A stretch of DNA of 64,000 bases from Chlamydiia bacterium (GCA_963827485.1 CAWHBB010000007.1:22806-86805), one strand, 5' to 3'. Positions 2,620 to 44,500 are shown, counted from the first letter of the stretch. A program made the numbers and translations. The notes: generated by a model not told the origin, from the sequence alone.

Positions 2620-2625
2620 TTTTTA

Positions 2626-2940: not shown

Positions 2941-3194
2941 AGGATTTCCTAATTGTTTAAGAATGGGGATGACTATCAATGAAATTTACATTTTATGCAA
3001 TGGTGTGGAATTTCACTCCCACTAAAACGGGCTGCCAGTACGCACGTCTTTAGGGATAATTGTTCGGGAAGGCCGCAGTCGCGCTCCGAGCGAAGCGAAG
3101 AGGCGCGGGGCGGCCCCCCTCTGAACGATTAGAAGACTAGCTTGAGATCTCCCCTAGACCCCTCCTAGCCTCCTAGTCCTCTCCTAGATCCCAC

Positions 3195-5801: not shown

Positions 5802-6803
5802 CTACACCGGTACGATAACCAGCGGCTCGCTTATCTTCCGGAAACTATCGAAATAAGAAGGCGAGACATTGAACAGAGAGGCCAGCGTAGGCGTAGAGAT
5901 AGATCCCATCACCTCTGCAATGCCGATATAGTCCGGCTCAGCATGGCTGAAAAAAGCAAGCACCTCGGCCGAATCACTCCCCATATTCTCAATATTGTGG
6001 AAGTGAGAGGCCGGCGCAAAGGCCCCCTCGCCCCCGGAAACATTCAGTACCTGGGTCTTACCGTCAGGAGAAAGAAGCGTGATCCGCGTCTGCCCCTTCA
6101 CAATATAGACCAGCTCACCCGCATTGGTGTGCCAGTGCGGCTCCACAACACCTCGCGGATTAAGGCCGAAGCCCAAGATCCCAAGTCCTTCAAGGACAGG
6201 AAGATTTGTCTTAGTTGCGAGCTGCAAGTAGCCCCCCTTCGAAAGGACCGATTTGCTGCTATCGGCAATATTGAATTTATAACGGCTGGAGATCGCGTGG
6301 GGGGGTCTTTCGATCATGGAGGGCAGCACGATCAATTCCTCCTTCTGCGATTTCTTCAATCCATCGACAAAGCCCGCCGCTGTGTTGAAGGTCGCCGTAA
6401 ACACATTTTCAGAAAGCGAGCGGATCGCACCCGTAAGTGCCATGATTTCAGGCTTCGTATGGTTATAGGCAAACTTGATCACCGTCTCGCTTGCGTCGAT
6501 ATTGGTAATCTCATGCACATAACCCATAGGAACGAAAAACACATCCCCCGCTTCAACTGTAAACCTCTCCAGCCCACTCGGAGTGCGAATCGAAACGAGC
6601 GCACCTCCCTCCAAACAGCAGCCAATCTTATTCGCATTGGGATGCCAGATCGGCACCTGGATCGCACCCCTGTTCAGCTTCAAGCCCGAAAAGGAGATGT
6701 TCTCAAAACCGCTCACCTCGGACGAGGTCACATTGACGATATATCCGCCGTCAAACTTTTGAGGCTTAATGGAATGTAGACTAAAGAAGTAGGGGTTGTT
6801 CAT
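5802..6803 (-). CDS. bicupin protein (germin/oxalate decarboxylase-like, two cupin barrels)
   Basis: 333 aa with two cupin-like halves (GYVHEITN...; HWHTNAGELVYIVKG...). The opposite-strand ORF 5769..6779 is a shadow ORF. Confidence 0.65.
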   Translation of the reverse strand: MNNPYFFSLHSIKPQKFDGGYIVNVTSSEVSGFENISFSGLKLNRGAIQVPIWHPNANKIGCCLEGGALVSIRTPSGLERFTVEAGDVFFVPMGYVHEITNIDASETVIKFAYNHTKPEIMALTGAIRSLSENVFTATFNTAAGFVDGLKKSQKEELIVLPSMIERPPHAISSRYKFNIADSSKSVLSKGGYLQLATKTNLPVLEGLGILGFGLNPRGVVEPHWHTNAGELVYIVKGQTRITLLSPDGKTQVLNVSGGEGAFAPASHFHNIENMGSDSAEVLAFFSHAEPDYIGIAEVMGSISTPTLASLFNVSPSYFDSFRKISEPLVIVPV

Positions 6804-6936
6804 AAGCTATATCAAGTTAAAATTTTAATTTAAATTTGGCCCAGAAGAGCAATAAAGTCAAGATCTTCTTAGATACAGATATTTACAAAAACTTTATACT
6901 TGCTACGTTTTGAAATAGAAAAGCTTAAGAGGAAAT

Positions 6937-8231
6937 ATGGCAGCAGCGGCAGCGGCAAGTAGCGGGGAGCGAGCAAGGATCGATAACTGCCCCGCTCCCT
7001 TACATCTCGAAGGGGTGCGCGATGGCATGCTTTCGGGCATCGGTCTAGACGACTTGATAAGCGTGGGCAAGTGCTGCAGAGCGTGGAGAGCTGTCGTCGA
7101 TGACTTCGTGCGCTGGGTAGCGTGCAGAGACCGAGAGCGAGATAGAGCGCGTCTTTCGCCTGAGATGCACGCTAAGTTCGATGCAGCATTGAAAGGAGAA
7201 AACTTTTTGAAATTTTTCTTCGAAAAGCCGTTTACTCCCACAGGCATTCGCTTGCGCTGGCATTTAGAACCTGAAGTTCGGACCCCAATTACTCGGAGTA
7301 GAAGAATCGCAAATGGACTACCCTAATCAGATGCAATCTCACTGCGTTGGTAGAATATGATGGTTTTCAATTATCGCTGTTTCCTACCCTAGGAGAGAGG
7401 AGAGCGACGTTCTCTAGCGGCTTGCGTCAGGTGGTTCTTCCACGTCATGGTAGTGAGCTTTCCATGATTTATTCAGATTCCATCACCTTTTTGAGAGAAT
7501 GTGTGATCTACAATTTACCGGCTGTTTTCCAAGATGGGCCTGCAGTCACCGAAGGGCCCTATACCGCCTGTTCAAGCAGAGATTGGGCACATCCCAATCA
7601 CATAAGAGTTGTGCATAGAGTCGGCCGTAATTTTGAAGCATTTAGCCTTTCTTGTGGGGAGGGAGCCGCTCCCCCTGACCGCCTTGCACTCGATCAGCAC
7701 TATCTGGTGAGCGCTGGAAGCGTGAGAGGCCAGGCAGCCGTTTGGGATCTATCGCAACGCAGACAAACGGCTGTTTTAGAGCATAGTGCTACAGATGCTA
7801 TTGAAGTAGCCTGCCATGGGGGAGAGGTGGTCACAGCCTCTCTGCGAAATGTAAAGTGGTGGGATGCAGCAAGCGGCGCGATGAAAAAAGAGATAATGCT
7901 CGGTATCGATGAGAAGCAATTTGCTGCACGAGCAGTCGATTTTCACTACCCCCTTGTGGGTTTGGGCAGCAATGATCGTTCAGGCAGTTACTCAGTACGT
8001 ATAATAGATCTCGCTATAGGGAGATGCTTTAGGCAATTTGAGGGCAATGGACAACTACTGACATTTTCTTTAGGTAGCTCTCAATTTTCAGTTTGTACCA
8101 TCCATAGCTCCGATCCCCACCAAACTTCACGCCTTATTACTTATGACTTCTCAACTGTCAGACGAGCCACGGATGATGCAAAGAAACCGGCCGCCGCCGC
8201 AGCAGCCGCTTCGGGTGCAGGGCCCTTTTAG
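6937..8231 (+). pseudogene. F-box/WD-like paralog copy 1, disrupted (two ORF fragments 6937..7326 and 7347..8231)
   Basis: Fragment 1 (MAAAAAASS...CCRAWRAVVDDFVRW...IRLRW) aligns with the N-termini of the two intact downstream paralogs. Fragment 2 (QLSLFPT...CSSRDWAHPNHI...AAVWDLSQRR...VKWWDAASGA) aligns with their C-terminal two thirds. The frame is lost after IRLRW. Confidence 0.55.
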
Positions 8232-8335
8232 CGATTCCGTAGTCTTTGACAAAATTTTACAATGATGTTATTCTGGTACGGTTTTTTCAAGTCCAACTCG
8301 AATATTATTAGAAACTTGAGCAAGGAGAGGAATGT

Positions 8336-9730
8336 ATGGCAGCAGCAGCGGCAGCAAAACGATCAGGGATCGATATGCCCATCCCAAAGCCTTTACAAAT
8401 GGTTTGGCAGAGCGATGAGATTCTCAAATATGCCGATCTGCACTCCTTGATGCGCTTGAGATGTTGCAGAGCATGGAGAGCGGTCGTCGATAACTTCGTG
8501 AACTGGACAGCCCGAGTAGAGAGAGAGCAGAACAGAGCGACTCTCTCACCCGCATTTCATGCCAAGTTTGATGCAGCGATAAATCAGCCAGGCTTTTTAA
8601 AATTTTGCTTCCAAGAGATGCACACCAAGACCTTCCTCGGTCTGCTCTGGCAAACAGGAGCACACGTCAGGACTCGCATGTTCAATAATACGGACTCTTC
8701 CGATCGAGCTGCCATAATCAGAGCCAATACCAACACAATTTTATTGCAAGATCCTACTCAGAATAAGGTGCTCCATTTTACTCGAAACCCGGATGCCACC
8801 TTCCAGCAAGCGCAATACCCTAGTCCCGCAGTGCGGCAAGTCGCTCTTGATCAACAAGGAGAGGGTATGGCCGTGATTGCACCTGATTGGATCAATTGGA
8901 GGGGAAGGTATTTCCAAGTTCGTTGGCCCGCTTTCCAGGGACCTGCAGTTTGCGACGGCCTTTTTTTCGCTGTGTCAAGCTCGAATTGGGCCCACCCTAA
9001 CCACATACAGACAATCCAGAAAGTATCGGGGAGTGAGGAATATAGAGTCCATATCCTCACATATGGAGAGGGCTTTCCTCCTCCAGACCGGCTTGCAATC
9101 AGCAAGCACCATCTCGTGAGCGCCCTACACCAAAGCGGCCGAGCGGAGCTTTGGGATCTATCTACCTCTCCCCCCACTTTTAGATCCCATCTATATCATG
9201 ATCCTGAAGCGGCGCCCAAGCCAGAGGCAGAGGCTGCAGCCGAGGCTCACGCGATAGAAAGAGAACCTGTTGAGATTGCTTGTCGTAATGGGCATGTCGT
9301 GACCGCCTCTCTTCAAAGAGTCAAGGTTTGGGATTTAGAGACCGGCGCAATGAAGAGAGAGATTCTTTTCGATGAGCACAAGGAGTGGGGTGGGATCTGT
9401 CCGGAGCGGGTCTCTCTCCATTACCCGCTCTTTGGATATGTCACTTGGCGCAAGGATGAGAGCGAGGATGATTCCTCGAGTGAAGAATTTTATAGCGTAC
9501 ATGTAACAGACTTAGACAGAGGGATTTACGTCGGACATTTTCCTATCGATGAGGCTCCGACAGCCTTCTCTCAGAGCTTATGGGGATTCAAGTTTTGCAC
9601 AAGCCAGATGAGGGAGGGCGGTGGTTTTACAGATTACAATACAGAGTACGAATTTCGCTTAGGCAAGCCTCCTCAGGTAGAGGTGACTTCCGGCTCGGGA
9701 GCGCAAAATGCAGGAGCTGGGAATGTGTAA
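8336..9730 (+). CDS. F-box domain protein with WD-like repeats (eukaryotic-like, paralog 2)
   Basis: 464 aa. The N-terminus is MAAAAAAKRSGIDMPIPKPL. An F-box-like motif reads SDEILKYADLHSLMRLRCCRAWRAVVDNFVNW. C-terminal WD-like motifs include AELWDLS, VKVWDLETGA and CSSSNWAHPNHI. Confidence 0.7.
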   Translation: MAAAAAAKRSGIDMPIPKPLQMVWQSDEILKYADLHSLMRLRCCRAWRAVVDNFVNWTARVEREQNRATLSPAFHAKFDAAINQPGFLKFCFQEMHTKTFLGLLWQTGAHVRTRMFNNTDSSDRAAIIRANTNTILLQDPTQNKVLHFTRNPDATFQQAQYPSPAVRQVALDQQGEGMAVIAPDWINWRGRYFQVRWPAFQGPAVCDGLFFAVSSSNWAHPNHIQTIQKVSGSEEYRVHILTYGEGFPPPDRLAISKHHLVSALHQSGRAELWDLSTSPPTFRSHLYHDPEAAPKPEAEAAAEAHAIEREPVEIACRNGHVVTASLQRVKVWDLETGAMKREILFDEHKEWGGICPERVSLHYPLFGYVTWRKDESEDDSSSEEFYSVHVTDLDRGIYVGHFPIDEAPTAFSQSLWGFKFCTSQMREGGGFTDYNTEYEFRLGKPPQVEVTSGSGAQNAGAGNV

Positions 9731-9761
9731 AGAAATTATTTTAATTTAGGAGAGAGTTCAT

Positions 9762-25766: not shown

Positions 25767-25839
25767 GGGGACTTAGCTCAGTTGGTAGAGCATCTGATTT
25801 GCAATCAGAGGGTCAGGAGTTCGAATCTCCTAGTCTCCA
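25767..25839 (+). tRNA. tRNA-Ala (anticodon TGC)
   Basis: Cloverleaf folded by hand: acceptor GGGGACT/AGTCTCC with G3:U70, D-arm GCTC-AGTTGGTA-GAGC, anticodon loop TTTGCAA, T-arm AGGAG-TTCGAAT-CTCCT, 73 nt. Confidence 0.85.
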
Positions 25840-25876
25840 TAGTGCAGCTGCAAAGGCAGCTATTCTCGAAACGCCC

Positions 25877-25950
25877 GCGGTTATAGCTCAGTTGGTTAGA
25901 GCGCGACACTGATAATGTCGAGGTCCCAAGTTCGAATCTTGGTAACCGCA
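25877..25950 (+). tRNA. tRNA-Ile (anticodon GAT)
   Basis: Cloverleaf folded by hand: acceptor GCGGTTA/TAACCGC, anticodon stem CGACA/TGTCG with loop CTGATAA, T-arm CCAAG-TTCGAAT-CTTGG, 74 nt. Confidence 0.85.
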
Positions 25951-31550: not shown

Positions 31551-32450
31551 TCAAGGTTTCAGCTCTTTGCCTTCCTTTTCCAACTCCTTTGTCAATGCCG
31601 TTATTCCGGCAATACTGCCCAGCTGCATCGACTCCACGGCCGTACTCGGAACGACGACGATCGTAGCATTGCTCTTCAACCCCTCGTAGAGCATATTCAT
31701 CGCGCGCAGGTGCAGAGCGGTGGGGTTATTGGCATAGGTTTTGGCCGCTTCGGCAAATTTCTCAGCGACTTGCCTCTCAGAATCTCCGAGAATCACCCTC
31801 GCCTGCCGCTCCCTTTCTGCCTGCGCCTGCATCGACATCGCATCTTCTAGAGCAGAGGGAATCAGAACATCTTTGACCTCGACCGAAATGACGTTGATGC
31901 CCCATGGCTCGGTGCGCTCATCGATGATCTTCTGCAACTCTTCGCTGATCTTGCTCCTCCCCTCGAGCATGTCGGAGAGCATGGTTTTGCCGATCACATC
32001 GCGCAGGGCAGTTTGAGAAGCCCAACCTATAGCCGATTGGTAATCAGCGACTTCAAGCGCCGCCTTTTTGGGGTCGATCACTTTCCAAAAGAGGAGGGCA
32101 TCCACATCGACAGGTACGGTATCTTTGGTTAGGGTCTTTTCTGCTTTGAAGGTGGTCAAGATGACCCGTATGTCGATCCAGTAGGGGATGGTGTCTACAA
32201 TGGGGATGATGAAAAAGAGCCCTGGTCCTTTTAAGGCGCGGAAATGGCCAAGTCGCAGAATCACAGCACGATTCCACTGATTGGCAACTTTAATAGACCA
32301 TGCAGCAAGAGAGGCGATGATCAGAGCGCCCACAAAGGTCCAAAAACCTGTCCAGGCAGCCGAGTTTTTATAGAGAGCATATCCTGCGATAATGCCAATA
32401 ATCAAAATGATAAAAAATATCAGAGTCGAGAACGAACTGGTTTTTGTCAT
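31551..32450 (-). CDS. SPFH/band-7 (stomatin-like) membrane protein
   Basis: 299 aa with two N-terminal TM helices, then an SPFH domain (IKVANQWNRAVILRLGHFRALKGPGLFFIIPIVD...) and a C-terminal coiled-coil. Confidence 0.8.
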   Translation of the reverse strand: MTKTSSFSTLIFFIILIIGIIAGYALYKNSAAWTGFWTFVGALIIASLAAWSIKVANQWNRAVILRLGHFRALKGPGLFFIIPIVDTIPYWIDIRVILTTFKAEKTLTKDTVPVDVDALLFWKVIDPKKAALEVADYQSAIGWASQTALRDVIGKTMLSDMLEGRSKISEELQKIIDERTEPWGINVISVEVKDVLIPSALEDAMSMQAQAERERQARVILGDSERQVAEKFAEAAKTYANNPTALHLRAMNMLYEGLKSNATIVVVPSTAVESMQLGSIAGITALTKELEKEGKELKP

Positions 32451-32539
32451 GATTACCTAATAACAATAATAATGTATTTTAAAAATTTTAGTAATACAAA
32501 TCGCATCTTCTTTTCGGAGAACATCCTCCTTCAATTTTT

Positions 32540-33145
32540 TTGCTATTTACTCTAAACAGGAACTTACAGCGGGGTCAGATGAAAGTGGGCTATTTTAGAA
32601 AGCAGCGCAGGAAGAGAGTCATACAATTAGGGGAAGACCTCGATTTTGGCATAAACAGAGTCATGAGAGAGCGCTGGGATTTTTTATCCCATGTCGCATT
32701 CTACCAAAATCTCGAAGAGCTAGAGAGCTTGATTCAGAAGAACAATATTCTAGAAAAAAATTCAGTTGATAGGATTCTTCTCGCGATTGAGAAGATCAAA
32801 AAGGATTACCCAGTCGAGAGGAAGCCGCTCTCTCTCCACGGCGATTTTAATAACTTTATGGGTGAGGTTCTTCTGCTCTCAGGGGAGATAAAAAAGGTCA
32901 TTCTCCTGCCATCGGATAGCGCCTCTGAGCTACCGGCTCACAACCCCACTGCAAGGGCGTGGAGGATTTTGGATGGCTTTTTTACAGCAGCAGAAAAAAG
33001 ACGAGAGACTATGGAGGAGGAGGAAAAGAGGCTCACCACCTTCATAATGATCGCATCCAAAAAACATGTCTATTATATGCAGATGGTAATCAACATCTTA
33101 GCCATAGGGATTGGCATTGTCATCGGCTGGATCTTTTCTCGCTGA
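32540..33145 (+). CDS. hypothetical protein with C-terminal TM anchor
   Basis: 201 aa. The start may be the MKVGYF at 32579. The C-terminal hydrophobic segment is VINILAIGIGIVIGWIF. Confidence 0.35.
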   Translation: MLFTLNRNLQRGQMKVGYFRKQRRKRVIQLGEDLDFGINRVMRERWDFLSHVAFYQNLEELESLIQKNNILEKNSVDRILLAIEKIKKDYPVERKPLSLHGDFNNFMGEVLLLSGEIKKVILLPSDSASELPAHNPTARAWRILDGFFTAAEKRRETMEEEEKRLTTFIMIASKKHVYYMQMVINILAIGIGIVIGWIFSR

Positions 33146-33946
33146 TGAAAGATAGGAATCGATGAGCATGCGGGAGATGCTCAAAGGGGGTGGCAATTGG
33201 GGTAGGTTAGTGTGGTTAAACCAGTCGGCATGCGCGAGTTCCATCGGATCAATGGATATCTCCCCCTCTTCCCAATCACAGGTAAAAGCGATCATGAGAG
33301 ATTGTGAAAAAGGCCATGGCTGACTGCCAAAATAGCGGATATTCTTTACCTTAACCCCTACTTCTTCAAATACTTCGCGGCTAATGCACTGCTCTAGGGT
33401 TTCGCCTGGGTCAACATAGCCTGCGATCACGCTATAGAATTTCTCGGGGAAGTGAGGGCCGCGAGCGAGGAGAATCTCACGATTCTTCTTGATCAGTGCC
33501 ATGACTGCGGGTGCCAATTTTGGGTAGGCTAGATATCCACAGGCGGGACACTCTCGGCAGCGCTCTGTGGGACGGATAAATGTCTCTTTTCCGCAACACC
33601 CGCAATATTTGTGAGAGCGATCCCAACCAAGTAGCTGCAAGGCGCGGCCTGCTACGGCAAAATAGTCGTCGCTGAGGAGGCCATAAAGCGTTCTTAAACT
33701 TCTCCAAAGCCAGCCTGATGGAATGGGCTGCGACGCTTCCGCTTCGGCGGCGAATAGATGGTGGCCTGCTAGAGTGCCCATATAAAGACTTCTTTTTAAA
33801 GTAAGGCCGATCTGATCTGGAATGGCCTCTCCCTCCGTCATGAGCAGTTTGTCTTCTGAAAAAACAAACCAGCGCGATTGACCTTCACTTGAGGGGTGCA
33901 GGCCATTTGTAAAGGCTGCTGGAGCGGCAAATGGAATATTCATCAT
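33098..33946 (-). CDS. nudC: NADH pyrophosphatase NudC (Nudix hydrolase with zinc ribbon)
   Basis: 282 aa with a C4 zinc ribbon (CGCCGKET...CRECPACG) and a Nudix box (GYVDPGETLEQCISREVFEEVG). Confidence 0.8.
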   Translation of the reverse strand: MMNIPFAAPAAFTNGLHPSSEGQSRWFVFSEDKLLMTEGEAIPDQIGLTLKRSLYMGTLAGHHLFAAEAEASQPIPSGWLWRSLRTLYGLLSDDYFAVAGRALQLLGWDRSHKYCGCCGKETFIRPTERCRECPACGYLAYPKLAPAVMALIKKNREILLARGPHFPEKFYSVIAGYVDPGETLEQCISREVFEEVGVKVKNIRYFGSQPWPFSQSLMIAFTCDWEEGEISIDPMELAHADWFNHTNLPQLPPPLSISRMLIDSYLSSARKDPADDNANPYG

Positions 33947-34781: not shown

Positions 34782-34879
34782 ATAACCCCCGTAAGCCTTT
34801 GTTCGAGCTATGCCGAATCTCTATCTTATTTGGAAATATTTTTTTGATGCCTTAATGGTAAAGGCGGGTAACAAAGGAT

Positions 34880-34923
34880 CTCCGGGTGTAGGATTCGAAC
34901 CTACGACCAATGGATTAACAGTC
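34880..34923. repeat. 44-bp direct repeat of tRNA-Asn 3' end (distal att site of integrative island)
   Basis: Identical to 44402..44445 (ctccgggtgtaggattcgaacctacgaccaatggattaacagtc). Confidence 0.85.
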
Positions 34924-35148
34924 TTGTGCAACCCCACAGGTCACAACAACGCACGAATGGTAACGGCAATAAGATTAAATGTTTAGAGAAATTTGCTTTT
35001 GGTAGTGGCTTGTGGCGTTTGGCAGTTTTTTGCCACGGAGTGGGGTAAAAATGGGGAATGATTATCTTCACATAAGTACTGGAATTGGCCTTCTTATTGT
35101 ACCACAAGGGCCTCCAATCAATCTTGCTCTTTAATTTAAATACATGAC

Positions 35149-35562
35149 TTGTTAAAATATACAAAATTTGGTATGCTCATGGTTAGTGAAGAAAGGCATC
35201 TAGAGTACATATCCTCTAGCAAGAAGGATTTAGAAAAACTCCCATTGGATGTAAAAGAAATATTCATTCACGGACTAGAGTTAGCATTAATCGGGGAAAA
35301 GCACCCTGATGCTCAGCCTATGAAGGGTTTTGGTGATGCGAGTGTACTAGAGATTCGCGAAAGACATAAAGGGGATGCCTATAGGGCAATGTACACAGTG
35401 AGATTTGAAAAAGCTGTATATGTCCTTCATGTCTTCAAGAAAAAAAGCAAGAAGGGGATTGCAACGCCAAAACAAGATATTGATCTAATCAAGGCAAGAC
35501 TTAAAGCAGCAGAAACCCATTATAAGGAACATTTTAAGGGTAAGAAAAAAAATGGAAAATGA
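35149..35562 (+). CDS. type II toxin, RelE/HigB (Gp49-like) family
   Basis: 137 aa. The motif YRAMYTVRFEKAVYVLHVFKKKSKKG is typical of Gp49/HigB-like toxins. It overlaps the next gene by 11 bp. Confidence 0.6.
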   Translation: MLKYTKFGMLMVSEERHLEYISSSKKDLEKLPLDVKEIFIHGLELALIGEKHPDAQPMKGFGDASVLEIRERHKGDAYRAMYTVRFEKAVYVLHVFKKKSKKGIATPKQDIDLIKARLKAAETHYKEHFKGKKKNGK

Positions 35563-35944
35563 AGAAGAAATTGTAGAAAGTTCCGGAAATATTTTTGAGG
35601 ATCTCGACTTTCCTGATGCTGAGGAAGCTCAAGTCAAATCAAAATTAGCAATCGAGATCTTTCTCATCATCAAAGCAAAAAAGCTGACCCAAAAAGAAGC
35701 TGCAAAAATCATGAAAACAGATCAGCCCCATGTTTCCGACATTTTGAGAGGCAAATTATCCAAGTTCACGATTGATCGGCTTTTTCGTTGTTTACTCGCA
35801 CTTGGCAAGGACGTCGAAATCAAAATTAAAAACCCGAAAAGTAAAACTGAGTCGCCTAGAATTTATGTGAGAGATGGTACAAAAAGAGCACCCATAGCCG
35901 TCAAGGGAGCTGCTAAGCAAGTATCAAAAAAACTCCGGGTGTAA
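35552..35944 (+). CDS. HTH (XRE-family) antitoxin, HigA-like
   Basis: 130 aa with a helix-turn-helix (LTQKEAAKIMKTDQPHVSDILRGK). The toxin-first gene order matches higBA-type modules. Confidence 0.55.
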   Translation: MENEEEIVESSGNIFEDLDFPDAEEAQVKSKLAIEIFLIIKAKKLTQKEAAKIMKTDQPHVSDILRGKLSKFTIDRLFRCLLALGKDVEIKIKNPKSKTESPRIYVRDGTKRAPIAVKGAAKQVSKKLRV

Positions 35945-36094
35945 GATTCGAACTTACGACCAGTGCATTAGCAGTCTTGTGCAACCCCACAGGCCACAAC
36001 AACGCACGAATGGTAACGGTAATAATAAATGTAGCAGCTTGTGGATTTTGATCATTTTTTCGCCGCGGAGTGGGGTGAAAGTGGGAAATGAATA

Positions 36095-37165
36095 TTAATC
36101 AATAGGGTTTAAAAGAATAGCATGGCCATCGCCAATACCCACCATTTGACCACGGTCATTAATACCAGCTACGTGACTAATACTGCCAACAGGGCAGCTA
36201 AAATCAAAAGCTAAATTTAATATTTTATTTAGATCGATTTTTTCTTCTCCATCCAAGATAAAAAACCGTATAGGGTAATACTGTTGACCATATGTTGATG
36301 TGCCAACTATTTGGCCGCTGTTGTTAAGGCACACTGGGAAGAAATCTTTGTGTAACTTCAGGCCTGTTTCCCTATCCAAAATATAGCCATAGCAATCCCA
36401 ATCAGAAGTTAGAAGCGTACCAATTGCAACTCCTTGGTTGTTCAGCCCTTCGCAGCTTGCATAGCCTTTGAAGTAAAATACATCATCATAGCGGCCGGTT
36501 TTCGGATCAAGGAATCGAAATACATTTTTTTGGCGATCCAATGCATCGACTAAAAAACAATCTTTCTTAGAATTGAATCTGGCAGAAATGATGTGATGTC
36601 CGAAGTTGAGAAAATCACCATCATTCCAAGTAAAAAGAGAAGTAATGCCATCTTCTGTTTTGAAAAAAATCAACTGGCCATCATTGCATATATCAAATAA
36701 CCGCAAGTAATTGTTTATGCAATTTGGAATAGCAAGCTTCTTGAGATTTCCATTTCTCAAAATAAAGAACTCCGGAAAATTTTTACCTATAGCACAGCTG
36801 CGTTCGTCACGTATATGAACGTCATATTGAACGGCGAGTGTTCCGTCATTATTTAACACTACTTTTTGCGCATAACTATGCTCGAATGTCTTAATTCCAC
36901 TATTCACAATCGGAGTAATATGGTCTTTGATTTTAAGCTTTTTGAAGCCATTGATTGGATCCCAAAGGAAAACTTTTTGACCCTCACCGTTGTCATCATT
37001 GTAAAGACCGCAGACCTGTCCCTTCTCATTGATCGAAAGATCGCTTACACTTTTTACGTCTGTAACTCCATAATCCAGAACCATAACTTGATATTTTGAT
37101 ATTGCAAAAAGCGAGGGAACGATACCGCAAAAAAACAAAATTGAGAGAAAAAACTTAAAAAACAT
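36095..37165 (-). CDS. secreted HAF-family extracellular repeat protein
   Basis: 356 aa with a signal peptide. Repeated NxxGQVVG-type motifs occur (INEKGQVCG, LNNDGTLAV, LNNQGVAIGT, LNNSGQIVGTS, INDRGQMVGIGDGHAILL). The gene is very AT-rich. Confidence 0.5.
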   Translation of the reverse strand: MFFKFFLSILFFCGIVPSLFAISKYQVMVLDYGVTDVKSVSDLSINEKGQVCGLYNDDNGEGQKVFLWDPINGFKKLKIKDHITPIVNSGIKTFEHSYAQKVVLNNDGTLAVQYDVHIRDERSCAIGKNFPEFFILRNGNLKKLAIPNCINNYLRLFDICNDGQLIFFKTEDGITSLFTWNDGDFLNFGHHIISARFNSKKDCFLVDALDRQKNVFRFLDPKTGRYDDVFYFKGYASCEGLNNQGVAIGTLLTSDWDCYGYILDRETGLKLHKDFFPVCLNNSGQIVGTSTYGQQYYPIRFFILDGEEKIDLNKILNLAFDFSCPVGSISHVAGINDRGQMVGIGDGHAILLNPID

Positions 37166-37423
37166 TGTTTATCTAAACATTTACATTTGGAAGAGTTAGA
37201 TTATATTGAAAAACGATGAAGACGTCAAATAAGACCGTTGTTTTCGATTTATTTTAATTTGGGGTTTTTGCATGCAAGAGGGTAGTGGTGAATGGCTTAT
37301 CCTGACTTCCGTGATGCATTTCCATTGCCACTAGGAAATCAATGAGTTAATTTTTTTGCATCACGTTACACATATGCCCTCTCTAACAGAGTTGTAGTGA
37401 TCTGGCGATCTAATCGAGTCGCC

Positions 37424-38041
37424 CTACAAATAAGCTCTCATCAGAGATGCAAATCCTTTTAACCCGCTAAATTTAGCGATTCCCCTTATCATCAATTCTT
37501 CATGCAAAGCCTCTATTTGATCTCTAAGCCTGTAGAATGTCTTCCAATGCATCCATTTGGGCTTGTCTAAAATGAGATCCGAATCAGCTCCAAGCTTGCG
37601 AATAATGGCCCATTTCTTATCAATTAACCGATCCAATGCGGTCTTGTTTTGGCTTCGATAGGCGAGATTCAGGCATGTTCTGCACACAAATACCGGCATC
37701 CCATCTGATAATCGATAGAGATAGAGCTTACCGCATCGTCTTAGGCATTTTGGATTAGGACATCGCATCCAATATCTAGAGTTCCCATAGTTGGCCTTAG
37801 ATTGCACGAACTGGATGCGCAAAATCCTTGTGTTATCTTCTGATACGTAGCGGATTTCCATGTGGCTTCGCAACACCAAGACTTTTAATCCATGAATAGG
37901 AATTTCTATGCCTTGTTCTGGCAGCTTCTGCATAATCTTGAATAGGAACATGCCTGCGCTGATCGATTTATGCTCCTGAATAAACCCTTTCGTTCTATGC
38001 GTATTGAAACGTATGCATGTCCCTGAGCCTGGCCCCCCCAT
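37424..38041 (-). CDS. hypothetical protein with Cys4 zinc-ribbon motif (island cargo)
   Basis: 205 aa with CPNPKCLRRCGKLY...FVCRTC. No recognisable family. Confidence 0.35.
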   Translation of the reverse strand: MGGPGSGTCIRFNTHRTKGFIQEHKSISAGMFLFKIMQKLPEQGIEIPIHGLKVLVLRSHMEIRYVSEDNTRILRIQFVQSKANYGNSRYWMRCPNPKCLRRCGKLYLYRLSDGMPVFVCRTCLNLAYRSQNKTALDRLIDKKWAIIRKLGADSDLILDKPKWMHWKTFYRLRDQIEALHEELMIRGIAKFSGLKGFASLMRAYL

Positions 38042-38315
38042 TATTCCACCTATACCGCTATTCTATACGAAATCATTAGGCAACCTTATTCCATTCACTT
38101 TTTGCCTAATTGTGAAAAACGCCCTAGATTTTGATAAGTTTATCAAATACAACCCCAAGCTTTCTGAGTCTCCACTTTTGCGCTGATGTTGAAGGCTGGT
38201 CTTTACATTTGTTATGTAGCACCTCCTCTGCAGCTTTCCTAAGCTCATCATTCGTCATCGATCCAAGATCTTCACCCTGCATACCTTACTCTCTAATTTT
38301 TTTTAATCGCATAGT

Positions 38316-39323
38316 CTATGAGCTTTCAATATTGCTAAGAAACCACTCGTTCAAATTGAGTCCTTGTTCGATCGCCTCTCCGATATCTTTTCCTATGGGC
38401 ACTGGCAATGGCCTTGCATGTGGGTATAGCTTTTGCCACTTAGCCAGCATCGCCATGCCCCCTTCGTCATTATCATGGCAGATAAGAAGGTAAGGTTTGC
38501 GCTTTGCCCAGTAATCCGCGACATTGTCGGGAGTCTTGGTATTGCTTCCAACCGAGATGCAAAAGGCAATATCACCACACGCATAGTGTGCTGCCAATGC
38601 GTCTAGCTCTGATTCCACTACAAGCATTACTAGCCGTTGAAAAGACCCTACGATATTTAAGCCATTCATAGACCCCCTCAATTGCCAATATTTAGGAAGA
38701 TCGTCATCAACTTTCCATTGGGTGCGCCGTATCTTTACCCGGGTCACCTTGCCTGAAGGCTCAAGCGAAGGAATCACTATACCTCTAGGTAAAAAGATCT
38801 TTTTTTTGCCTTCTAATCCGAACTCCTCCGGTGACACCCAGGTGTCATTGATACAATAACCAAGCTTATAACGCTCGATTGCATCCTCAGGAAGGCCTCT
38901 TGATTTTAATTTTGCGAACTTAGCAGGGGACAATCTGAGCTGGCCATTTGCCCAATCAACGAATTCCAGGGCCCGTTCACACCACTTATCATTAGGAGGG
39001 ATAAGAGTCGGCCTAGAGAACGGCTGCTCAATGTGGGACATTTGTGAAGGCCGCAGAGTTATCTCTGCGTTGACGCGCTTACATGCATCTTCAAATGAGA
39101 GCCCTAGAAAGTCACGACAGAACTGGATCGAGTCGCCTCTTTTCTCGCATTTCCTACACCAATAATTGCCAATGCAATTCCTTGAAGGCGATCGAGGCCA
39201 CATACGAAATCTGTCACTGCCGCCGCAGGCAGGGCAGCTTGATGAATATTCGCTTCCTTTAGGCGAGCTAGATTCGAGCTTCGGATTCAGCCCTACCTCC
39301 TTTGCCAGTTCAAGTAAAACCAT
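38316..39323 (-). CDS. DNA primase, zinc-finger (CHC2-like) plus TOPRIM domain
   Basis: 335 aa with CPACGGSDRFRMW...CRKC, then TOPRIM-like acidic motifs (LVVESELDALA; CHDNDEGG). Confidence 0.65.
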   Translation of the reverse strand: MVLLELAKEVGLNPKLESSSPKGSEYSSSCPACGGSDRFRMWPRSPSRNCIGNYWCRKCEKRGDSIQFCRDFLGLSFEDACKRVNAEITLRPSQMSHIEQPFSRPTLIPPNDKWCERALEFVDWANGQLRLSPAKFAKLKSRGLPEDAIERYKLGYCINDTWVSPEEFGLEGKKKIFLPRGIVIPSLEPSGKVTRVKIRRTQWKVDDDLPKYWQLRGSMNGLNIVGSFQRLVMLVVESELDALAAHYACGDIAFCISVGSNTKTPDNVADYWAKRKPYLLICHDNDEGGMAMLAKWQKLYPHARPLPVPIGKDIGEAIEQGLNLNEWFLSNIESS

Positions 39324-39968
39324 CTATAAATCCTTTTAGGTCATAGTAGATCATTTTGGACCTAGTTCTGGTCATCGTAGAAATGTGCTGTAACTTGCTC
39401 ATTTTCATCGATTGGCTACAGATGTCATGGTGGTCGGGGCATTTTGGAACTGCTAAGTAAAAAAATCATTGGGCTGCTGTGCTGAACTCTCATATCTAAC
39501 GCTATGGATCCTTATTTGTACTATGTCCGCACTATGACCACTATGACCATCTATTGAAAATGAAAGACTTATGGTGTCATGCCTACTATGACCGAGCCTT
39601 GGTCGAGGATGCATCTGCTGTGACCACGCTAACTCCATATAGAAGATCGACCTTAAAACTTTTTTCGAAATCCTTTCTTGCTCTTCCAAGTCCTGGAACG
39701 ACGTATAGATTTTCTCGCTTAGAGGATTCTGATCTCGCCCTCTTCTGATAATTGAGCTAATGTGCTCTGCCTAGGCTCTGCCTTAGCCTTTCTTTTGAAT
39801 CATGGAACAATCCTTGCTTCTTGCACCAATTGCAATAATAGTTAAATACTGACCTCGGTAGGGATTTCATTTTTCATTCATAAGACGGCTCTCGATCTAA
39901 TCTGCCGATGTTGAAGCAACCGGTTGATAGGGCCTCGTAGATATATTTTTCGGGTGTTCGAGCGCTCA

Positions 39969-41103
39969 TCATTTTACTTCAAACGCTTCTGTATCGGGTG
40001 CGGAGGATTCTAGATCGTATGCAGAGATGTCTTCATTGAGAAGTTCATAGAGAAGCGCTTGTAGACCCCCATTTTTCATCTCATCGGCAATCGCTTTGAA
40101 GTACTGGGATGTCTTCTTTGTGAATATCGCTTACTTTTAAGACCAGGAAGCGCCGATCGTCTGGATCGATGTGAACTGGCCACTCTTCATTACTCGAGAT
40201 GATCACGTGCTTGAAATTGCGCACCATGATTCTATCTTTACCTTTGCCCTCGATTAGTGAGAATTCGTCGGTGACCATAGACTTCAGGACGCCAATATCC
40301 TTCTTATGTCCGCCCCATATGGCCTCGTTGGCGTGGATTAGGACTGCGTTCTTGAGATGAAAGTTGAATTGACCAAGGAGCTGCTGAATGTTATCTAACG
40401 GAAGGTAGTGAGCGCCAAATACCTCTCCTATGGGGTTCACAAAAGTGTTTTTCCCCACTCCTTGCTGGCCCATTAAGACAAGGCCAGTTGCTAGCAAATT
40501 GGGATGTTGAACTAGATGGGCAAGCCATTTCCAAACATAGGTGAAGTGTTCTGGTTTGCCTGCGCAAATCACTTCTAAGATGTGTTTCTGATAGAGATCG
40601 CAGCTTCCTTTTTTCTGCTCAATAGCAAAGCCCTTCCACATGTTATAGAGGCCATTTTTGTGCCCTGTGGTCGTCGGATCAAATGTGATCCCTTGATACT
40701 GGCGTCGTTTAGGGTGCGCTAGCCACAATCTAGCTACGTTTTTTGGCTTGCCATCTTGCCCTGCGATGACTCTATTCTCATATGTGTTTAGGAAAGATTG
40801 TCTGCTCTCTAGGGTGAAATCAACCCCTTTGGAAAATGGATGAGGTTTTTCAGTGAGGATATAGAACTGGTCTGTGTGTATCACAGCATGTTTTTTATTT
40901 AATTCCTCAACTGTTTTCTCTTCGGGAGGGAGCAGATTGTGAGCTTTTTCTTGCAGTTCTATGAGCTTGCTTATTTTGTCAGAGTCCCAGGTGTCGCTCC
41001 CTGGGATATCCTTCAGTTCAACTCTCAACAGATCTTCAACGGAGAAGGCCAGTCCGAGTGCTGCAAGTTCACTTTTGATGTTCGATTTTAAATCAGACAT
41101 CAC
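39969..41103 (-). pseudogene. P4-type primase C-terminal/helicase (D5-like NTPase) gene, frameshifted near 40100..40125
   Basis: The 340-aa ORF 40081..41103 has a Walker A (LMGQQGVGKNTF) and ends at ...SDIHKEDIPVLQSDCR. The +1 frame continues with a plausible protein tail (KTSQYFKAIADEMKNGGLQALLYELLNEDISAYDLESSAPDTEAFEVK, stop at 39969). Confidence 0.55.
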
Positions 41104-41354
41104 GAATCAATCCCATAGGTTTTTAAGTTGGTTGAGCTATTGCGAATGAATTCAATCACACTTGCTTGGGGAATCACGCGGCGGCGTGGTGAGATCTTGA
41201 CATAGGGCAAGAGACCTTTTAATAAAGCCATGCGAGCTGCTGCCAAGGAACCAAAAAAGCCGACAGAGGTCAATTCTCGAAGCGAATAAAAGGGTTTGTC
41301 ACCTATCGCTTTATGCAGTTCAGCAATTAATGCATCTAAAGGTAATGTGGGCAT
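41100..41354 (-). CDS. AlpA/excisionase-like HTH DNA-binding protein
   Basis: Likely start MPTLPLDALIAELHKAIGDKPFYSLRELTSVGFFGSLAAARMALLKGLLPYV. It is short and sits next to the primase, as in P4-like elements. Confidence 0.4.
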   Translation of the reverse strand: MPTLPLDALIAELHKAIGDKPFYSLRELTSVGFFGSLAAARMALLKGLLPYVKISPRRRVIPQASVIEFIRNSSTNLKTYGIDS

Positions 41355-41702
41355 AGTCTTCTCTGTATAAAGAAAGCCATGCAGAGATTGATGGGGTACG
41401 TCTTTATGAGATCCAATGAATATATCTATTGAATCCCAAGAAAGCGTTTGATAAATTAGGATCACAAAGAGCAGTGGTATCAACCTTGCTATTTAGCCGT
41501 GAGAAAGGTGCGAACTTTTTCACGGTTTTTTTGTGACCTTTATCATAATTTCACCATCTCTGCATGGCTTCCTCTAGTTTCTAGTTAATTTAAATGATCC
41601 AAAGTCTATCTTTGACTTTTAATGCTTCTAATAGCTCTTGATCTATTTTATTTTCAAGTATTTGTTGCTATGTAATGTAAGTGGCTCACTAATTTAAGCA
41701 GT

Positions 41703-41951
41703 TTACTTATTGTCATGGTTTGTGATGATTTGCTCAATGTTGCCATTCTTCTCTTCAATCCAGCGAAAAAACTCCTGTTCGTTGATCAGCACTCTCCTTC
41801 CACAGCGGCGCAGCACTTTATTGAACCCATTCCTTTCCGCATGAAATATCAAATGGCGTAGTCCACCTGCTGGCGGCCATGCATGTTTCTTACACCACTC
41901 GCTCACGGTGAGGTAGCTAGGTTGGTTGCAGTTACGTATTTCTGATGACAC
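41703..41951 (-). CDS. small HTH/excisionase-like protein
   Basis: 82 aa with LTVSEWCKKHAWPPAGGLRHLIFHAERNGFNKVLRRCGRRVLINEQEFFRWIEE. Confidence 0.4.
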   Translation of the reverse strand: MSSEIRNCNQPSYLTVSEWCKKHAWPPAGGLRHLIFHAERNGFNKVLRRCGRRVLINEQEFFRWIEEKNGNIEQIITNHDNK

Positions 41952-42064
41952 ATTGCCTCCTTATTTTTTTGCCATTCCCCAGAGGCCATTACAGGCATGC
42001 TTAGGATTGCTCATCATTGTACCAAAAGGGGAGTGGTATGAAATTTGCCATTTTCAAATAGACA

Positions 42065-43075
42065 TCATGTGGTCGGCGGCAATTTTCCGTGAATTCTTAT
42101 GTGATTGATCATTTGGTATTTGCTATACTCTGCGATGCTATTTACGCAGATGTTGCGCGCAGTGCTTGCTATTATTTGGGGTGCGCCATCGAGGTATAAA
42201 GCGACTACCTGATTTTGTAAAAACTCCTCGACAAACTCATCCACGGTCATTTTATCAAACTTTTCCTTCTTCAGCGCCATTAGGACCCATACAGCAGTTG
42301 ATATGGCTGTACACAGTAGAGAGAAATGATAGTGAGGCAGTTTGCCATTTCCTTTTCTCAAGACTTCAGGAATGGGATGGGGAATGTACTGACGAGGTTT
42401 GGTTTCTTTGGGCGCAGAGGGCGGCCGACCGCGTTGTCCTGGCTCACCAAATAGTGTATTTATTGCCCTGAGCACAGATTTATGCTCTTTATCTGTTGGG
42501 TAGCCAGTGTCGAACGCCTTTTCTTGTTTGTAGCACTGCATTAAAGGATGCTTGTATATGTCCGCAGCCCGGTGCAAATTTGGGTTCAATGTTAGGACGA
42601 ATTGGCCAATGATCTTGTTTTTTACCTTGTTCTGAAGCGGAACAGTAAGCTTGCAATCCGCTATTTGCTTAAACCCTAAGACCTCCAGGAGGTCTTTTGG
42701 AAGGGTTAATTCTCTGCGGAGAGCCCACACGATTACTGCTTCAGAGGGTACAAGATAGGTGATACCATCAGATAAATACTCAAACCTCGCTGCTAGTTCA
42801 CCTTTTTCGATCGAGTCTTTCATTGCCAAGAAGATCTCCCGAAACGCTGCTCCAGTGGATTTGAGGTCGAAGTTTGCTTCGGGGCCTGGCAGAAAAAATG
42901 AAGGACGGTCTTCCTTAATCTCTGCTGGTAATGGGGAGACATGAGTATAATATAAGCCTTCTTTGGGCCACTTGGTCAGCACAAAGGCTGCTTCATGGAT
43001 TGCCCACCATCTAAAGTTGATGAAAGCGTCCATGGAAGGAGGGCAAAACGGTTCTCTGTTCATATTATTACCCAA
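42065..43075 (-). CDS. hypothetical protein in the int-alpA cargo position of the island
   Basis: 336 aa with no recognisable motif. It overlaps the integrase gene by 8 bp. Confidence 0.4.
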   Translation of the reverse strand: MGNNMNREPFCPPSMDAFINFRWWAIHEAAFVLTKWPKEGLYYTHVSPLPAEIKEDRPSFFLPGPEANFDLKSTGAAFREIFLAMKDSIEKGELAARFEYLSDGITYLVPSEAVIVWALRRELTLPKDLLEVLGFKQIADCKLTVPLQNKVKNKIIGQFVLTLNPNLHRAADIYKHPLMQCYKQEKAFDTGYPTDKEHKSVLRAINTLFGEPGQRGRPPSAPKETKPRQYIPHPIPEVLRKGNGKLPHYHFSLLCTAISTAVWVLMALKKEKFDKMTVDEFVEEFLQNQVVALYLDGAPQIIASTARNICVNSIAEYSKYQMINHIRIHGKLPPTT

Positions 43076-44126
43076 AGATTTTCTCGTTCATATTGGAAAT
43101 CACCTTGGCTGTATGGTTTTCAGAGAGGTGTGAGTACCGTTTCACCATACTGAGTGTCCTATGCCCTAGAACTTCAGCTATTTCAGCAAGGCTGGCTCCG
43201 TTCATTGCCAAATAAGAAGCGCACGAGTGTCTCGTATCATGAAATTTTAAATTGATAACGCCACTCTTCTTCACCGCAAATTCCCATGCAGAACGAATAT
43301 CGATGGGTTTTTTGGGGAATTTGCCAGGAAAGAGGTAGTGGGTATCTAGGCGTCTACACTGGTTGAGTTGGTGAAGAAGTTCGAGAGCATGGCCAGTAAT
43401 CGCCACCTGGCGGATTTCTCCGTTTTTGGTTTCATGTAGGATGACTCGGCCCTTATCGAGATCGACATCGGCCCATTTGAGGTGCAGGATTTCGGCTTGA
43501 CGCATACCTGTAGATAGGGCCAGCACGACTATCGTGTACAAGTAGGGGTTTGTGCTCTGTTGGCATGCCTCCAGTAGTTTTGCTCTTTCATCGTCGTCTA
43601 AAAATCGGACTCGTCCGCGAGGCTCGCGAGGTTTCGTGACCTTTCGAATAGGAGAGTCTTCGATCCACCCCCATTCCTTGATGGCGATTGTGAAAGCATG
43701 CGATAGGGCCGCCAGATACCTGACAACGGTCGCAGGGCTTCGGATCTTCCCTTGTTTTGTGATACCTCTGAGGAGAACATCTCTTTGTTCTGCAATCATA
43801 GCAGGGGAGACATCGGAGAGGAGGTAACCGCCGAGTTGCTGCTTCCACCAGATCAATTGAGAGCCCTGGCGCTGCTTACATTTGTGTTTGGTAGGAAGCA
43901 CATCCCTAATGTAGCGGTCGATGAGTGCGCCAAGAGTGTGCTTTTTGGCCTCGGTCGTTTTGAAATGCCGTCCTTCGCGGATCGCAGATTCGGTTTGCTG
44001 GATCCAACGTTCGGCATCGGTCTTCCTTTTGAATGAAGCATATTGCGGAGGGCTTCCCTTAATCCTGACCTGGACATGGAAGCGGGTTTTGCCGTCTTTG
44101 TCTTTGAGTTCTTTGATTGAAGCCAT
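43068..44126 (-). CDS. tyrosine-type site-specific integrase (phage integrase family)
   Basis: 352 aa. The C-terminal catalytic region reads HDTRHSCASYLAMNGASLAEIAEVLGHRTLSMVKRYSHL (R...HxxR...Y). It lies adjacent to tRNA-Asn. Confidence 0.85.
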   Translation of the reverse strand: MASIKELKDKDGKTRFHVQVRIKGSPPQYASFKRKTDAERWIQQTESAIREGRHFKTTEAKKHTLGALIDRYIRDVLPTKHKCKQRQGSQLIWWKQQLGGYLLSDVSPAMIAEQRDVLLRGITKQGKIRSPATVVRYLAALSHAFTIAIKEWGWIEDSPIRKVTKPREPRGRVRFLDDDERAKLLEACQQSTNPYLYTIVVLALSTGMRQAEILHLKWADVDLDKGRVILHETKNGEIRQVAITGHALELLHQLNQCRRLDTHYLFPGKFPKKPIDIRSAWEFAVKKSGVINLKFHDTRHSCASYLAMNGASLAEIAEVLGHRTLSMVKRYSHLSENHTAKVISNMNEKIFG

Positions 44127-44401
44127 ATTTTTTTCCTTCTTTTATCGGTTCAAAATGCACCCAGGGGATTCTTATTCTCCTGGGTTGGATTGCATGGATG
44201 TCTCGTAAGAAAGTGAATTTATGGCTTGCAAGATAGGCGATTTCCCCATTTTTGCCCCACTGAAACACAAACTTAACACTATTAAAACATCCATGCATTC
44301 GCTCTGTGTTGTGATGATGTGGGGTAAAAGTGGGGAATAACGTATCCCCGGAAATGAAAAAGGCACCTAGGTTTTTGGCCTAAGTGCCTGTTAATCTGAA
44401 A

Positions 44402-44473
44402 CTCCGGGTGTAGGATTCGAACCTACGACCAATGGATTAACAGTCCACTGCTCTACCACTGAGCTAACCCGGA
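44402..44473 (-). tRNA. tRNA-Asn (anticodon GTT)
   Basis: The reverse complement folds as TCCGGGT-TA-GCTC-AGTGGTA-GAGC-A-GTGGA-CTGTTAA-TCCAT-TGGTC-GTAGG-TTCGAAT-CCTAC-ACCCGGA-G, 72 nt. Confidence 0.85.
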
Positions 44474-44500
44474 ATAGAGCCTGCTATCTTATGCGAGCGG

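Follow-up and report, generated by a model that had tools for sequence, protein, structure and literature searches.

An Island of Low GC Content at the tRNA-Asn Gene

We have studied an island that lies against the tRNA-Asn gene in a 64,000-nucleotide stretch of DNA (hereafter the window) from a Chlamydiia bacterium (GCA_963827485.1 CAWHBB010000007.1:22806-86805), positions being counted from the first nucleotide of the window. The island extends from 34880 to 44445, and is probably composite, with a truncated phage-derived element at tRNA-Asn placed next to the toxin-antitoxin-bearing remnant of a related element. We refer to the segment adjoining the tRNA gene as the proximal unit (35933-44445, ~8.5 kb), and to the segment beyond it as the distal unit (34880-35976, ~1.1 kb).

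The flanks are ordinary chromosome, comprising genes for an outer-membrane protein (OMP), a NUDIX protein and a Band 7 protein on the left, and a DUF748-like open reading frame (ORF), GroEL, GroES and PepF on the right. A PepF profile scan using one genome per species gave 80 loci, all labelled as Chlamydiota or as metagenome-assembled genomes (MAGs) of the Planctomycetes-Verrucomicrobia-Chlamydiae (PVC) group. The best relatives of the PepF and GroEL of the window are all from Chlamydiota MAGs, in agreement with a preliminary description of this DNA that had placed it in a Chlamydiae genome. The best PepF identity among the 80 loci was only 53%, and the host is best regarded as a deep-branching member of the Chlamydiota, without a close relative in the genome collection.

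The region is a horizontally acquired island at tRNA-Asn, since its GC content is 0.43 compared with 0.49-0.55 elsewhere (the minimum among 143 other segments of 9.5 kb is 0.491), and since the site appears to be occupied in some Chlamydiota and empty in others. The comparison of occupancy was made on the right-side synteny (GroEL-tRNA-Asn) only, as no available relative shares the left flank. About 30 Chlamydiota loci preserve the order PepF-GroES-GroEL-tRNA-Asn, and in six of these (L010, L013, L037, L062, L063 and L075) an integrase 61-86% identical to that of the window directly follows the tRNA gene. No integrase of this family was detected in the remaining loci, a few of which have less than 1 kb of sequence past the tRNA, too little to judge. 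The preliminary description had proposed that identical content at tRNA-Asn in related genomes would speak for ancestral core; the content at this site is instead found to vary between genomes. Integrase identity does not track the PepF or GroEL identity of the hosts. In L010 and L013, for example, GroEL and PepF are equally related to those of the window, while the integrases are 61% and 86% identical to the integrase of the window, respectively. The 259-aa ORF beside the tRNA gene is weakly DUF748-like, and a 239-aa DUF748 gene holds the equivalent place in L282; a genome scan with the 259-aa ORF found no relatives.

Three Attachment Cores and Their Arms

The tRNA-Asn(GTT) gene lies on the minus strand at 44401-44474 according to ARAGORN (44402-44473 with Rfam, 76.3 bits), and its sequence is identical to that of tRNA-Asn in L002 and L052. 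The 3′ 44 nt of the tRNA form the tRNA-proximal attachment (att) core (44402-44445, minus strand), which is repeated exactly, 44/44 nt, at the distal end of the island (copy A; 34880-34923, plus strand). The island is thus bounded by 44-bp direct repeats, as first described. There is a third, middle core (copy B; 35933-35976, plus strand) with five substitutions relative to the 3′ part of the tRNA. Its existence had been recognized previously, with coordinates (35932-35975) that are displaced by one nucleotide. A scan of the 64-kb window allowing 12 mismatches revealed no core beyond these three.

Two of the five substitutions in copy B (G to A and C to T) form a compensatory pair in the T stem, and the same pair is found in the functional chlamydial tRNA-Asn of L026. 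Because the change is compensatory and matches a natural variant, copy B appears to descend from the 3′ half of a working tRNA. In its anticodon, GTT has become GCT.

Copies A and B, which are oriented alike and lie 1053 bp from each other, have 105 nt in common at 89.5% identity. Past the core, the first 49 nt are 96% identical, followed by a second block (35023-35065 and 36053-36095) at 84%. A shared sequence of ~45 bp had been said to follow every copy of the core. This is true of copies A and B; after the tRNA copy comes the 5′ half of the tRNA itself. The 16 nt immediately past the core (TTGTGCAACCCCACAG) are identical in A and B, and a five-way alignment shows this box to be invariant in L281 and L282 as well, with a conserved arm motif ~115 nt further in. 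The P′ arm of the distal remnant (34924-35148, plus strand) contains a 16-nt box at 34924-34939 and an arm motif at 35040-35059, and is homologous to the P′ arms of L281 and L282/L283; that of the proximal element (35977-36095, plus strand) contains the box at 35977-35992 and the motif at 36070-36089. Across four independent loci the motif has been conserved within the P′ arm. A metagenome scan for the exact P′ arm pattern gave no match.

The arm motif is the 20-nt sequence GTGGGGTAAAAGTGGGGAAT, which has four matches in the window with three or fewer mismatches, at 35040(+), 36070(+), 44241(−) and 44319(+), compared with none in 100 shuffles. All four lie beside att copies, one in each P′ arm and an inverted pair between the tRNA and integrase genes. 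This pair (44241-44260, minus strand, and 44319-44338, plus strand) lies in the P arm (44241-44338) upstream of the integrase gene; over 340 nt, the P arm and its L002 counterpart are 82% identical. For a looser form of the motif, 1.3 Mb of chlamydial loci gave a background of 0.5 per 100 kb. In L002, L004 and L006 the inverted pair is found ~130 and ~220 nt upstream of the integrase gene regardless of the target tRNA; in L062 and L063 a single copy was found, at the tRNA-proximal position. With its recurrence in the P and P′ arms of relatives, the motif behaves like an integrase arm-type or operator site, and the earlier proposal of candidate arm-type sites near the att copies has been strengthened by these comparisons.

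An intrinsic terminator (44361-44389, minus strand), with an 11-bp stem and a T run, lies 12 nt downstream of the restored tRNA. In L002, L062, L063 and L052 the tRNA is likewise followed by the AGGCAC...GTGCCTTTTT hairpin, and the terminator of the tRNA is most simply regarded as supplied by the P arm of the element. L052 has a 239-nt direct repeat (7480-7718 and 9672-9909, 97.5% identical) beginning at the 3′ end of tRNA-Asn; the repeat contains the element-type terminator hairpin and the arm motif, but lacks an integrase. It may represent a different sort of remnant left by this family of elements.

Genes of the Proximal Unit

Starting 275 nt from tRNA-Asn is the gene for a tyrosine integrase of 352 aa (43068-44126, minus strand; PF00589, E = 2.1e-34; phrog_1 integrase, 4.2e-69). 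It has more than 7000 relatives in the database, the best 120 being all at least 63% identical, and aligns over its full length with more than 100 homologues, each at least 63% identical. The catalytic residues R209, K234, H296, R299, H322 and Y331 are invariant in the alignment of relatives, and the protein is apparently intact. PF00589 is its only Pfam match. The N-terminus comprises ~60 highly conserved residues that match no family, ahead of a weak Int_N/SAM-like domain; the integrases of relatives have a weak Int_N match at residues 63-165.

The integrase gene is followed by a conserved partner gene encoding 332-336 aa (ORF of 336 aa at 42065-43075, minus strand) that overlaps its end by 8 nt. 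Homologues follow the integrase gene in L002, L004, L006 and L062 at 25-33% identity. The family is fast evolving, with 117 representatives among 1.84e9 proteins. Scans of Pfam, PHROG and NCBIfam gave no family match. An AlphaFold2 model has a pLDDT (predicted local distance difference test) of 94.2; it matched no fold in the PDB or BFVD, and a profile search against PDB sequences was likewise empty.

Next come two small conserved genes on the minus strand. The first encodes 82 aa (41703-41951; HTH_17, E = 0.0025, below threshold), with homologues in 19 loci, and is a candidate excisionase or regulator. The second (41136-41354, also listed as an ORF at 41100-41483) encodes ~73-84 aa with a weak HTH_17-like signal, and is homologous to L002_79, L004_83 and L006_79; two of the eight members of its family match HTH_17, with a best E of 6.8e-4. 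Both proteins have an excisionase-type helix-turn-helix (HTH) sequence pattern with sub-threshold HTH_17 scores, and profile searches of both families against PDB sequences gave no match. The description of two AlpA-like HTH genes is therefore too specific for such weak matches, and while two small genes do exist, the conserved ones are those given here; an ORF of 78 aa at 39453-39689 is without homologues, and touches or runs into the end of the decayed 3′ region of the gene described next, whose homology to the L002 orthologue stops at 39649.

This is a pseudogene (39649-41103, minus strand; PF19263, 6.8e-22) for a DUF5906 protein, a D5/P4-C-terminal-like NTPase. The reading frame is open for 340 codons (40081-41103), after which the last ~150 codons are broken by at least five in-frame stops, and the orthologue in L002, of 512 aa, can be aligned over 41088-39649 at 51%. 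It is followed by an intact gene for a 335-aa primase with a Zn-ribbon and a Toprim domain (38316-39323, minus strand; PF08273, PF13155; phrog_849 DNA primase, 1.4e-21), 60% identical to its L002 orthologue over the full length. These two had been taken as the halves of a split primase/helicase, a view that did not survive comparison with L002, where the helicase-like DUF5906 protein (512 aa) and the primase (332 aa) are encoded by separate genes. The window has no counterpart of the 466-aa DEAD helicase of L002. The earlier impression of partial decay is borne out by the missing helicase and the stops in the DUF5906 gene.

The remainder of the unit contains two genes on the minus strand. The first encodes a 205-aa hypothetical protein (37424-38041) with a Cx4C...CxxC pattern and no Pfam, PHROG or NCBIfam match, its only matches, at 25-28%, being in L263 and L271; we regard it as cargo or replacement DNA. 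The second encodes a 356-aa HAF-repeat protein with a hydrophobic N-terminus (36095-37165; TIGR02913, 6.1e-7, 29.3 bits against a cut-off of 22.65), and is the cargo of lowest GC content (0.37-0.39). The gene assignments that hold are thus tyrosine integrase, HigBA-like pair, DUF5906, Zn_Ribbon_Prim plus Toprim, and HAF repeat. Scans of Pfam and PHROG found no match to a terminase or structural gene in the window, and the island, having no large terminase, portal or major capsid gene, does not classify as a Caudoviricetes prophage.

Relatives of the Proximal Unit

Is the proximal unit complete, or has it lost part of a larger element? The layout of integrase, partner of 290-336 aa, two small genes and replication genes recurs beside different tRNAs, namely tRNA-Asn in L002, tRNA-Leu in L004 and tRNA-Tyr in L006, with integrases that are 87%, 74% and 69% identical to that of the window. 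The contig of L002, the closest relative, ends 9 kb into the element. Its genes following the primase (166 and 193 aa) match genes of L006 that precede the terminases, and ~10 kb downstream of its integrase gene L006 has a small-terminase-like gene and a large terminase, TerL (phrog_26724, 3.5e-63; phrog_2, 2.9e-28). In the metagenomic contig L247 the orthologous module of DUF5906, Zn-ribbon primase and 166-aa protein is followed two genes later by a Terminase_6N/6C protein, and in the IMG/VR contig L098/L285 (IMGVR_UViG_3300022894_000082) a TerL of 531 aa is joined to the same early genes. Because the elements of relatives, whose integrases are 69-87% identical, extend collinearly in the direction of small and large terminase genes, we read the proximal unit as a truncated phage-derived element; the stops in DUF5906, the missing DEAD helicase and the lack of a terminase in the window are the reasons for reading it as truncated.

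The 11-kb contig L247 (1-11029, Ga0209006_10006001) carries a different tyrosine recombinase and ParA along with the replication module and the large terminase, and resembles a phage-plasmid. A metagenome scan with the Zn-ribbon primase also recovered the module without a window-type integrase, and these pairings indicate that the replication module is exchanged between types of element. In L285 the early genes and TerL lie across a tRNA-Tyr from an integrase that is 44% identical, and TerL is followed by proteins of 189 and 282 aa without PHROG match (925-4077).

The family extends outside the Chlamydiota. In Legionella adelaidensis NCTC12735 there is a 13.3-kb island (L245, 15935-29242) with an integrase 60% identical to that of the window and a matching layout of small genes, including a homologue of the 82-aa protein, its ends being marked by a 47-nt direct repeat with its start in the tRNA-Met anticodon loop. 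The record is named 'plasmid 9' (NZ_LR134418.1); it carries rpoD, dnaG and rpsU, and is really a piece of chromosome. An apparent mini-island in L023 includes the 3′ part of tRNA-Asn in a 1159-nt repeat (6752-7910 and 8991-10149, 99.9% identical) beside a scaffold gap. This is probably an artefact of assembly, and is not used as evidence.

The preliminary description saw in the order of genes a P4-like satellite. The proximal unit could accordingly be a naturally small and essentially complete satellite resembling P4 or a phage-inducible chromosomal island (PICI), or an integrative mobilisable element; a helper phage or plasmid would then mobilise it. The size of 8.5 kb and the gene set of integrase, small HTH genes and primase are satellite-like, the Legionella relative is complete at 13.3 kb without a large terminase, L004, L010, L037 and L075 show only a small HGGxSTG or small-terminase-like gene within the sequence seen, and the genes past TerL in L285 are not recognizable as portal or capsid. 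Against this, the integrase lacks the P4-type N-terminal domain, DUF4102 being undetected even at E values up to 5, and the P4 primase C-terminal family (TIGR01613) scores 29.7 bits compared with a cut-off of 108.7. Moreover, the DUF5906 gene is a pseudogene and a helicase that the closest relative, L002, possesses is missing, L002 and L006 remain collinear as far as the terminase genes, and no small terminase, capsid-redirecting gene or relaxase is among the Pfam, PHROG and NCBIfam matches of the window. On balance we consider a complete satellite unlikely, though it is the strongest of the alternatives to a truncated phage-derived element.

The Distal Unit

Between copies A and B lie two overlapping genes on the plus strand, higB (35149-35562; Gp49, PF05973, 1.5e-22) and higA (35552-35944; HTH_37, PF13744, 9.4e-26), with an overlap of 11 nt. 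The arrangement of a toxin gene upstream of, and overlapping, that of an HTH antitoxin is that of a predicted HigBA-type type II toxin-antitoxin pair. In higA the final ~14 codons have been replaced, and its stop codon falls inside core B.

Contigs of close HigB relatives (75-90% identical) were examined. The HigB and HigA proteins are 86-90% and 68-85% identical, respectively, to the pairs in L281 and L282. At the nucleotide level, 34873-35892 of the window matches L281 at 80% over 1028 nt, a segment that takes in the core and P′ arm together with higB and the greater part of higA. In L282/L283 the unit of core, P′ arm and higBA forms one end of an 8.1-kb low-GC island lacking an integrase, the other end of which is tRNA-Asn beside a DUF748 gene and GroEL. 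As the unit of core, P′ arm and higBA recurs at ~80% nucleotide identity in these loci, the segment between A and B is best explained as the surviving end of a second, related element and not as a local duplication. The earlier suggestion of tandem or successive integrations, drawn from the third copy, is in this way upheld, in the form of two related elements lying next to each other. Each distal core matches the tRNA-Asn variant of its own host, which fits independent integrations. Homology breaks off within the final ~14 codons of higA, some 40 nt short of core B, pointing to internal deletion as the way in which the second element would have lost its remainder.

The island in L282 (9721-17902, ERZ25039549 contig_101061) contains a cluster of two radical-SAM genes, a gene of the MbnB/TglH/ChrH family and an 83-aa ORF, and looks like a locus for a ribosomally synthesized and post-translationally modified peptide (RiPP). 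A second HigA-like fragment lies outside that island (8233-8508).

Could the third copy have arisen in place? On this explanation there was one integration, the attR end (core plus P′ arm) of a single element was duplicated or shuffled by recombination, and higBA is plain cargo. A and B do have core and P′ arm in common, in the same orientation 1053 bp apart, and between them neither a P arm nor the remnant of an integrase could be detected. However, the core-P′-higBA unit exists without the proximal element in L281 and L282/L283. Furthermore, A and B differ by 10-16% and yet A is identical to the tRNA, where an old duplication should have let both drift, and the T-stem change in B is compensatory, as expected of a once-functional tRNA sequence. 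We therefore regard an origin in place as improbable, markedly more so than a satellite.

A Proposed Mechanism

The region might in principle be ancestral chromosome in which the repeats are coincidental or tRNA-derived debris, but beyond the lack of a closely related empty site nothing favors this, and it is effectively refuted by the exact 44-nt repeat and conserved P′ arm, by a GC content of 0.43 compared with at least 0.49 elsewhere, by the integrase adjoining the tRNA, and by the variation in content at tRNA-Asn across about 30 Chlamydiota loci.

The composite island that we favor would have arisen when two related elements integrated site-specifically, in tandem, within the 3′ part of tRNA-Asn. 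The two units have the pattern that such accretion should produce, i.e., three direct att copies, and a segment without an integrase that shares att and arms with an integrase-bearing neighbor. The proximal unit would be the integrase-to-primase end of a phage-derived integrative element of the terminase type. It would have retained the integrase, the partner gene, the two small HTH-like genes and the Toprim primase, and lost the DEAD-box helicase, the C-terminus of DUF5906 and everything from the packaging genes onward, the lost end now being filled by low-GC cargo (the 205-aa and HAF-repeat proteins). The distal unit would be the host-side core, P′ arm and higBA of the second element, persisting because loss of a toxin-antitoxin pair is counter-selected.

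In this scheme the integrase recombines attP with the tRNA gene by a crossover that we place in the anticodon loop, since the block of identity spans the anticodon stem to the 3′ end and the Legionella repeat starts in the anticodon loop. The 44-nt block would then rebuild the tRNA, with the element supplying the terminator too. The invariant 16-nt box beside the core would be the core-type site across the crossover. The bipartite GTGGGG-N5-GTGGGG sequences, an inverted pair in the P arm and one copy in the P′ arm, would be arm-type sites for the integrase N-terminus, of which the ~60 conserved residues are a candidate arm-binding domain; a role as cofactor-binding sites is equally possible. 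One of the small HTH proteins is a likely directionality factor.

A number of observations weigh against this account of the island. No portal or capsid is recognizable in the TerL-bearing relatives L006, L247 and L285 within the available sequence, and the Legionella island lacks TerL, so the family may include, or even consist of, satellites. A search inside the loci of the relatives for a direct repeat of the target tRNA was negative, and the distal end of an intact relative was not recovered. With the best host relative at 53% in PepF, an empty site with a matching left flank could not be shown. For the distal unit, the 40 nt to the left of core B were tried as the stump of a P arm, and rejected as the similarity is not significant. 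The perfection of core A, set against three non-compensatory changes in core B, would be awkward for a two-step history of integration with crossover in the anticodon loop, and no full-length element was found to terminate in higBA or this P′ arm.

Comparison with Known Systems

Islands of 5.5-15 kb with integrases, frameshifted mobility genes and one large terminase have been described at tRNA-Thr, tRNA-Leu and tRNA-Met in Protochlamydia naegleriophila (PMC5010888). The island of the window resembles these and other tRNA-integrated cryptic prophages and islands with lambda-type integrases in having an integrase by a tRNA, a repeat of the 3′ part from the anticodon region and a rebuilt tRNA, as well as deviant composition and partial gene decay. 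The comparison with Pr. naegleriophila is with the published description.

Tandem arrays of integrative and conjugative elements (ICEs) and cis-mobilisable elements (CIMEs), such as those of ICESt1 and ICESt3 in Streptococcus thermophilus, arise by the accretion of integrative elements and cis-mobilisable remnants that lack an integrase. The likeness is in an integrase-less, att-flanked remnant in tandem with an integrase-bearing relative at the same att site, with three direct copies of att. The present island differs in that it has no conjugation module and is phage-derived, and in that the remnant is only 1 kb with a toxin-antitoxin pair.

With P4-like satellites and PICIs the island has in common the order of integrase, small HTH regulators, primase/NTPase and accessory genes, the targeting of a tRNA and a small size. 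It differs in the integrase N-terminus, in having separate primase and NTPase genes and in the score below the P4 cut-off, and its family differs in that relatives encode a large terminase themselves. Scans of Pfam, PHROG and NCBIfam gave no match in the window to genes for capsid size, transactivation or redirection of packaging; such genes evolve fast, and cos was not searched for.

A 9.1-kb plasmid of Estrella lausannensis encodes an integrase, a putative excisionase, a DNA primase and a RelE-type toxin-antitoxin pair, with hypothetical genes shared with other environmental chlamydiae (PMC4333871). By its published description it is alike in size and gene list, and differs in being extrachromosomal with a partitioning gene. 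A search of PLSDB with the integrase gave no Chlamydiales plasmid among the best matches listed, the top plasmid match being a Legionella record. Sets of phage-derived genes have also been reported on chlamydial plasmids (PMC7846284). The papers found in a search of the literature gave no description of the integrase family of the window, its arm motif, the 16-nt P′ box, the partner gene or tailed prophages of Chlamydiae.

A Proposed Family of Integrating Elements

The copy in the window is itself routine, an ordinary decayed tRNA island. The less expected features belong to the family, and are its breadth across the Chlamydiota, the reach into Legionella, a conserved site code, a partner protein of orphan fold and the link to terminases. 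We put forward tentatively, as a possibility short of an even chance, that the island is one decayed copy from a family, so far undescribed, of elements that encode a terminase and integrate at tRNA genes throughout the phylum Chlamydiota, with a close cousin in Legionella. Its proposed traits would be an integrase 60-87% identical across hosts with ~50% PepF identity, the GTGGGG-N5-GTGGGG code of arm sites, and the orphan-fold partner, with a core re-tuned to different tRNAs (Asn, Leu, Tyr, Met and Arg).

To our knowledge, only Microviridae have been isolated from chlamydial hosts, and no tailed phage. If the proposal is correct, and intact members are active, there would be temperate tailed phages, or their satellites, in obligate intracellular bacteria, and a natural system of site-specific integration for environmental chlamydiae. 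The Chlamydiae are hard to manipulate genetically, and the defined parts of attP (44-nt core, 16-nt box and arm sites) with an apparently intact integrase constitute a candidate tool for integration. The occurrence of the integrase, att and arm system across uncultured Chlamydiota and Legionella fits gene flow among amoeba-associated intracellular bacteria. Lastly, the distal remnant may illustrate how an addiction module could keep an att site available as a landing pad once the remainder of the element has gone.

Other Features of the Window

To the left of the island, 32000-33150 has a GC content of 0.40-0.44 and contains a 201-aa ORF without Pfam match and a 103-aa ORF, with no att-like sequence. 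A tRNA-Ala(tgc)/tRNA-Ile(gat) pair at 25767-25950 is of the type usual in rRNA spacers; Rfam finds no rRNA anywhere in the window. On the plus strand, 61262-63554 contains three consecutive weak matches (27-35%) to the OMP beta-barrel protein of the left flank of the island, which suggests a tandem family of outer-membrane-protein paralogues.

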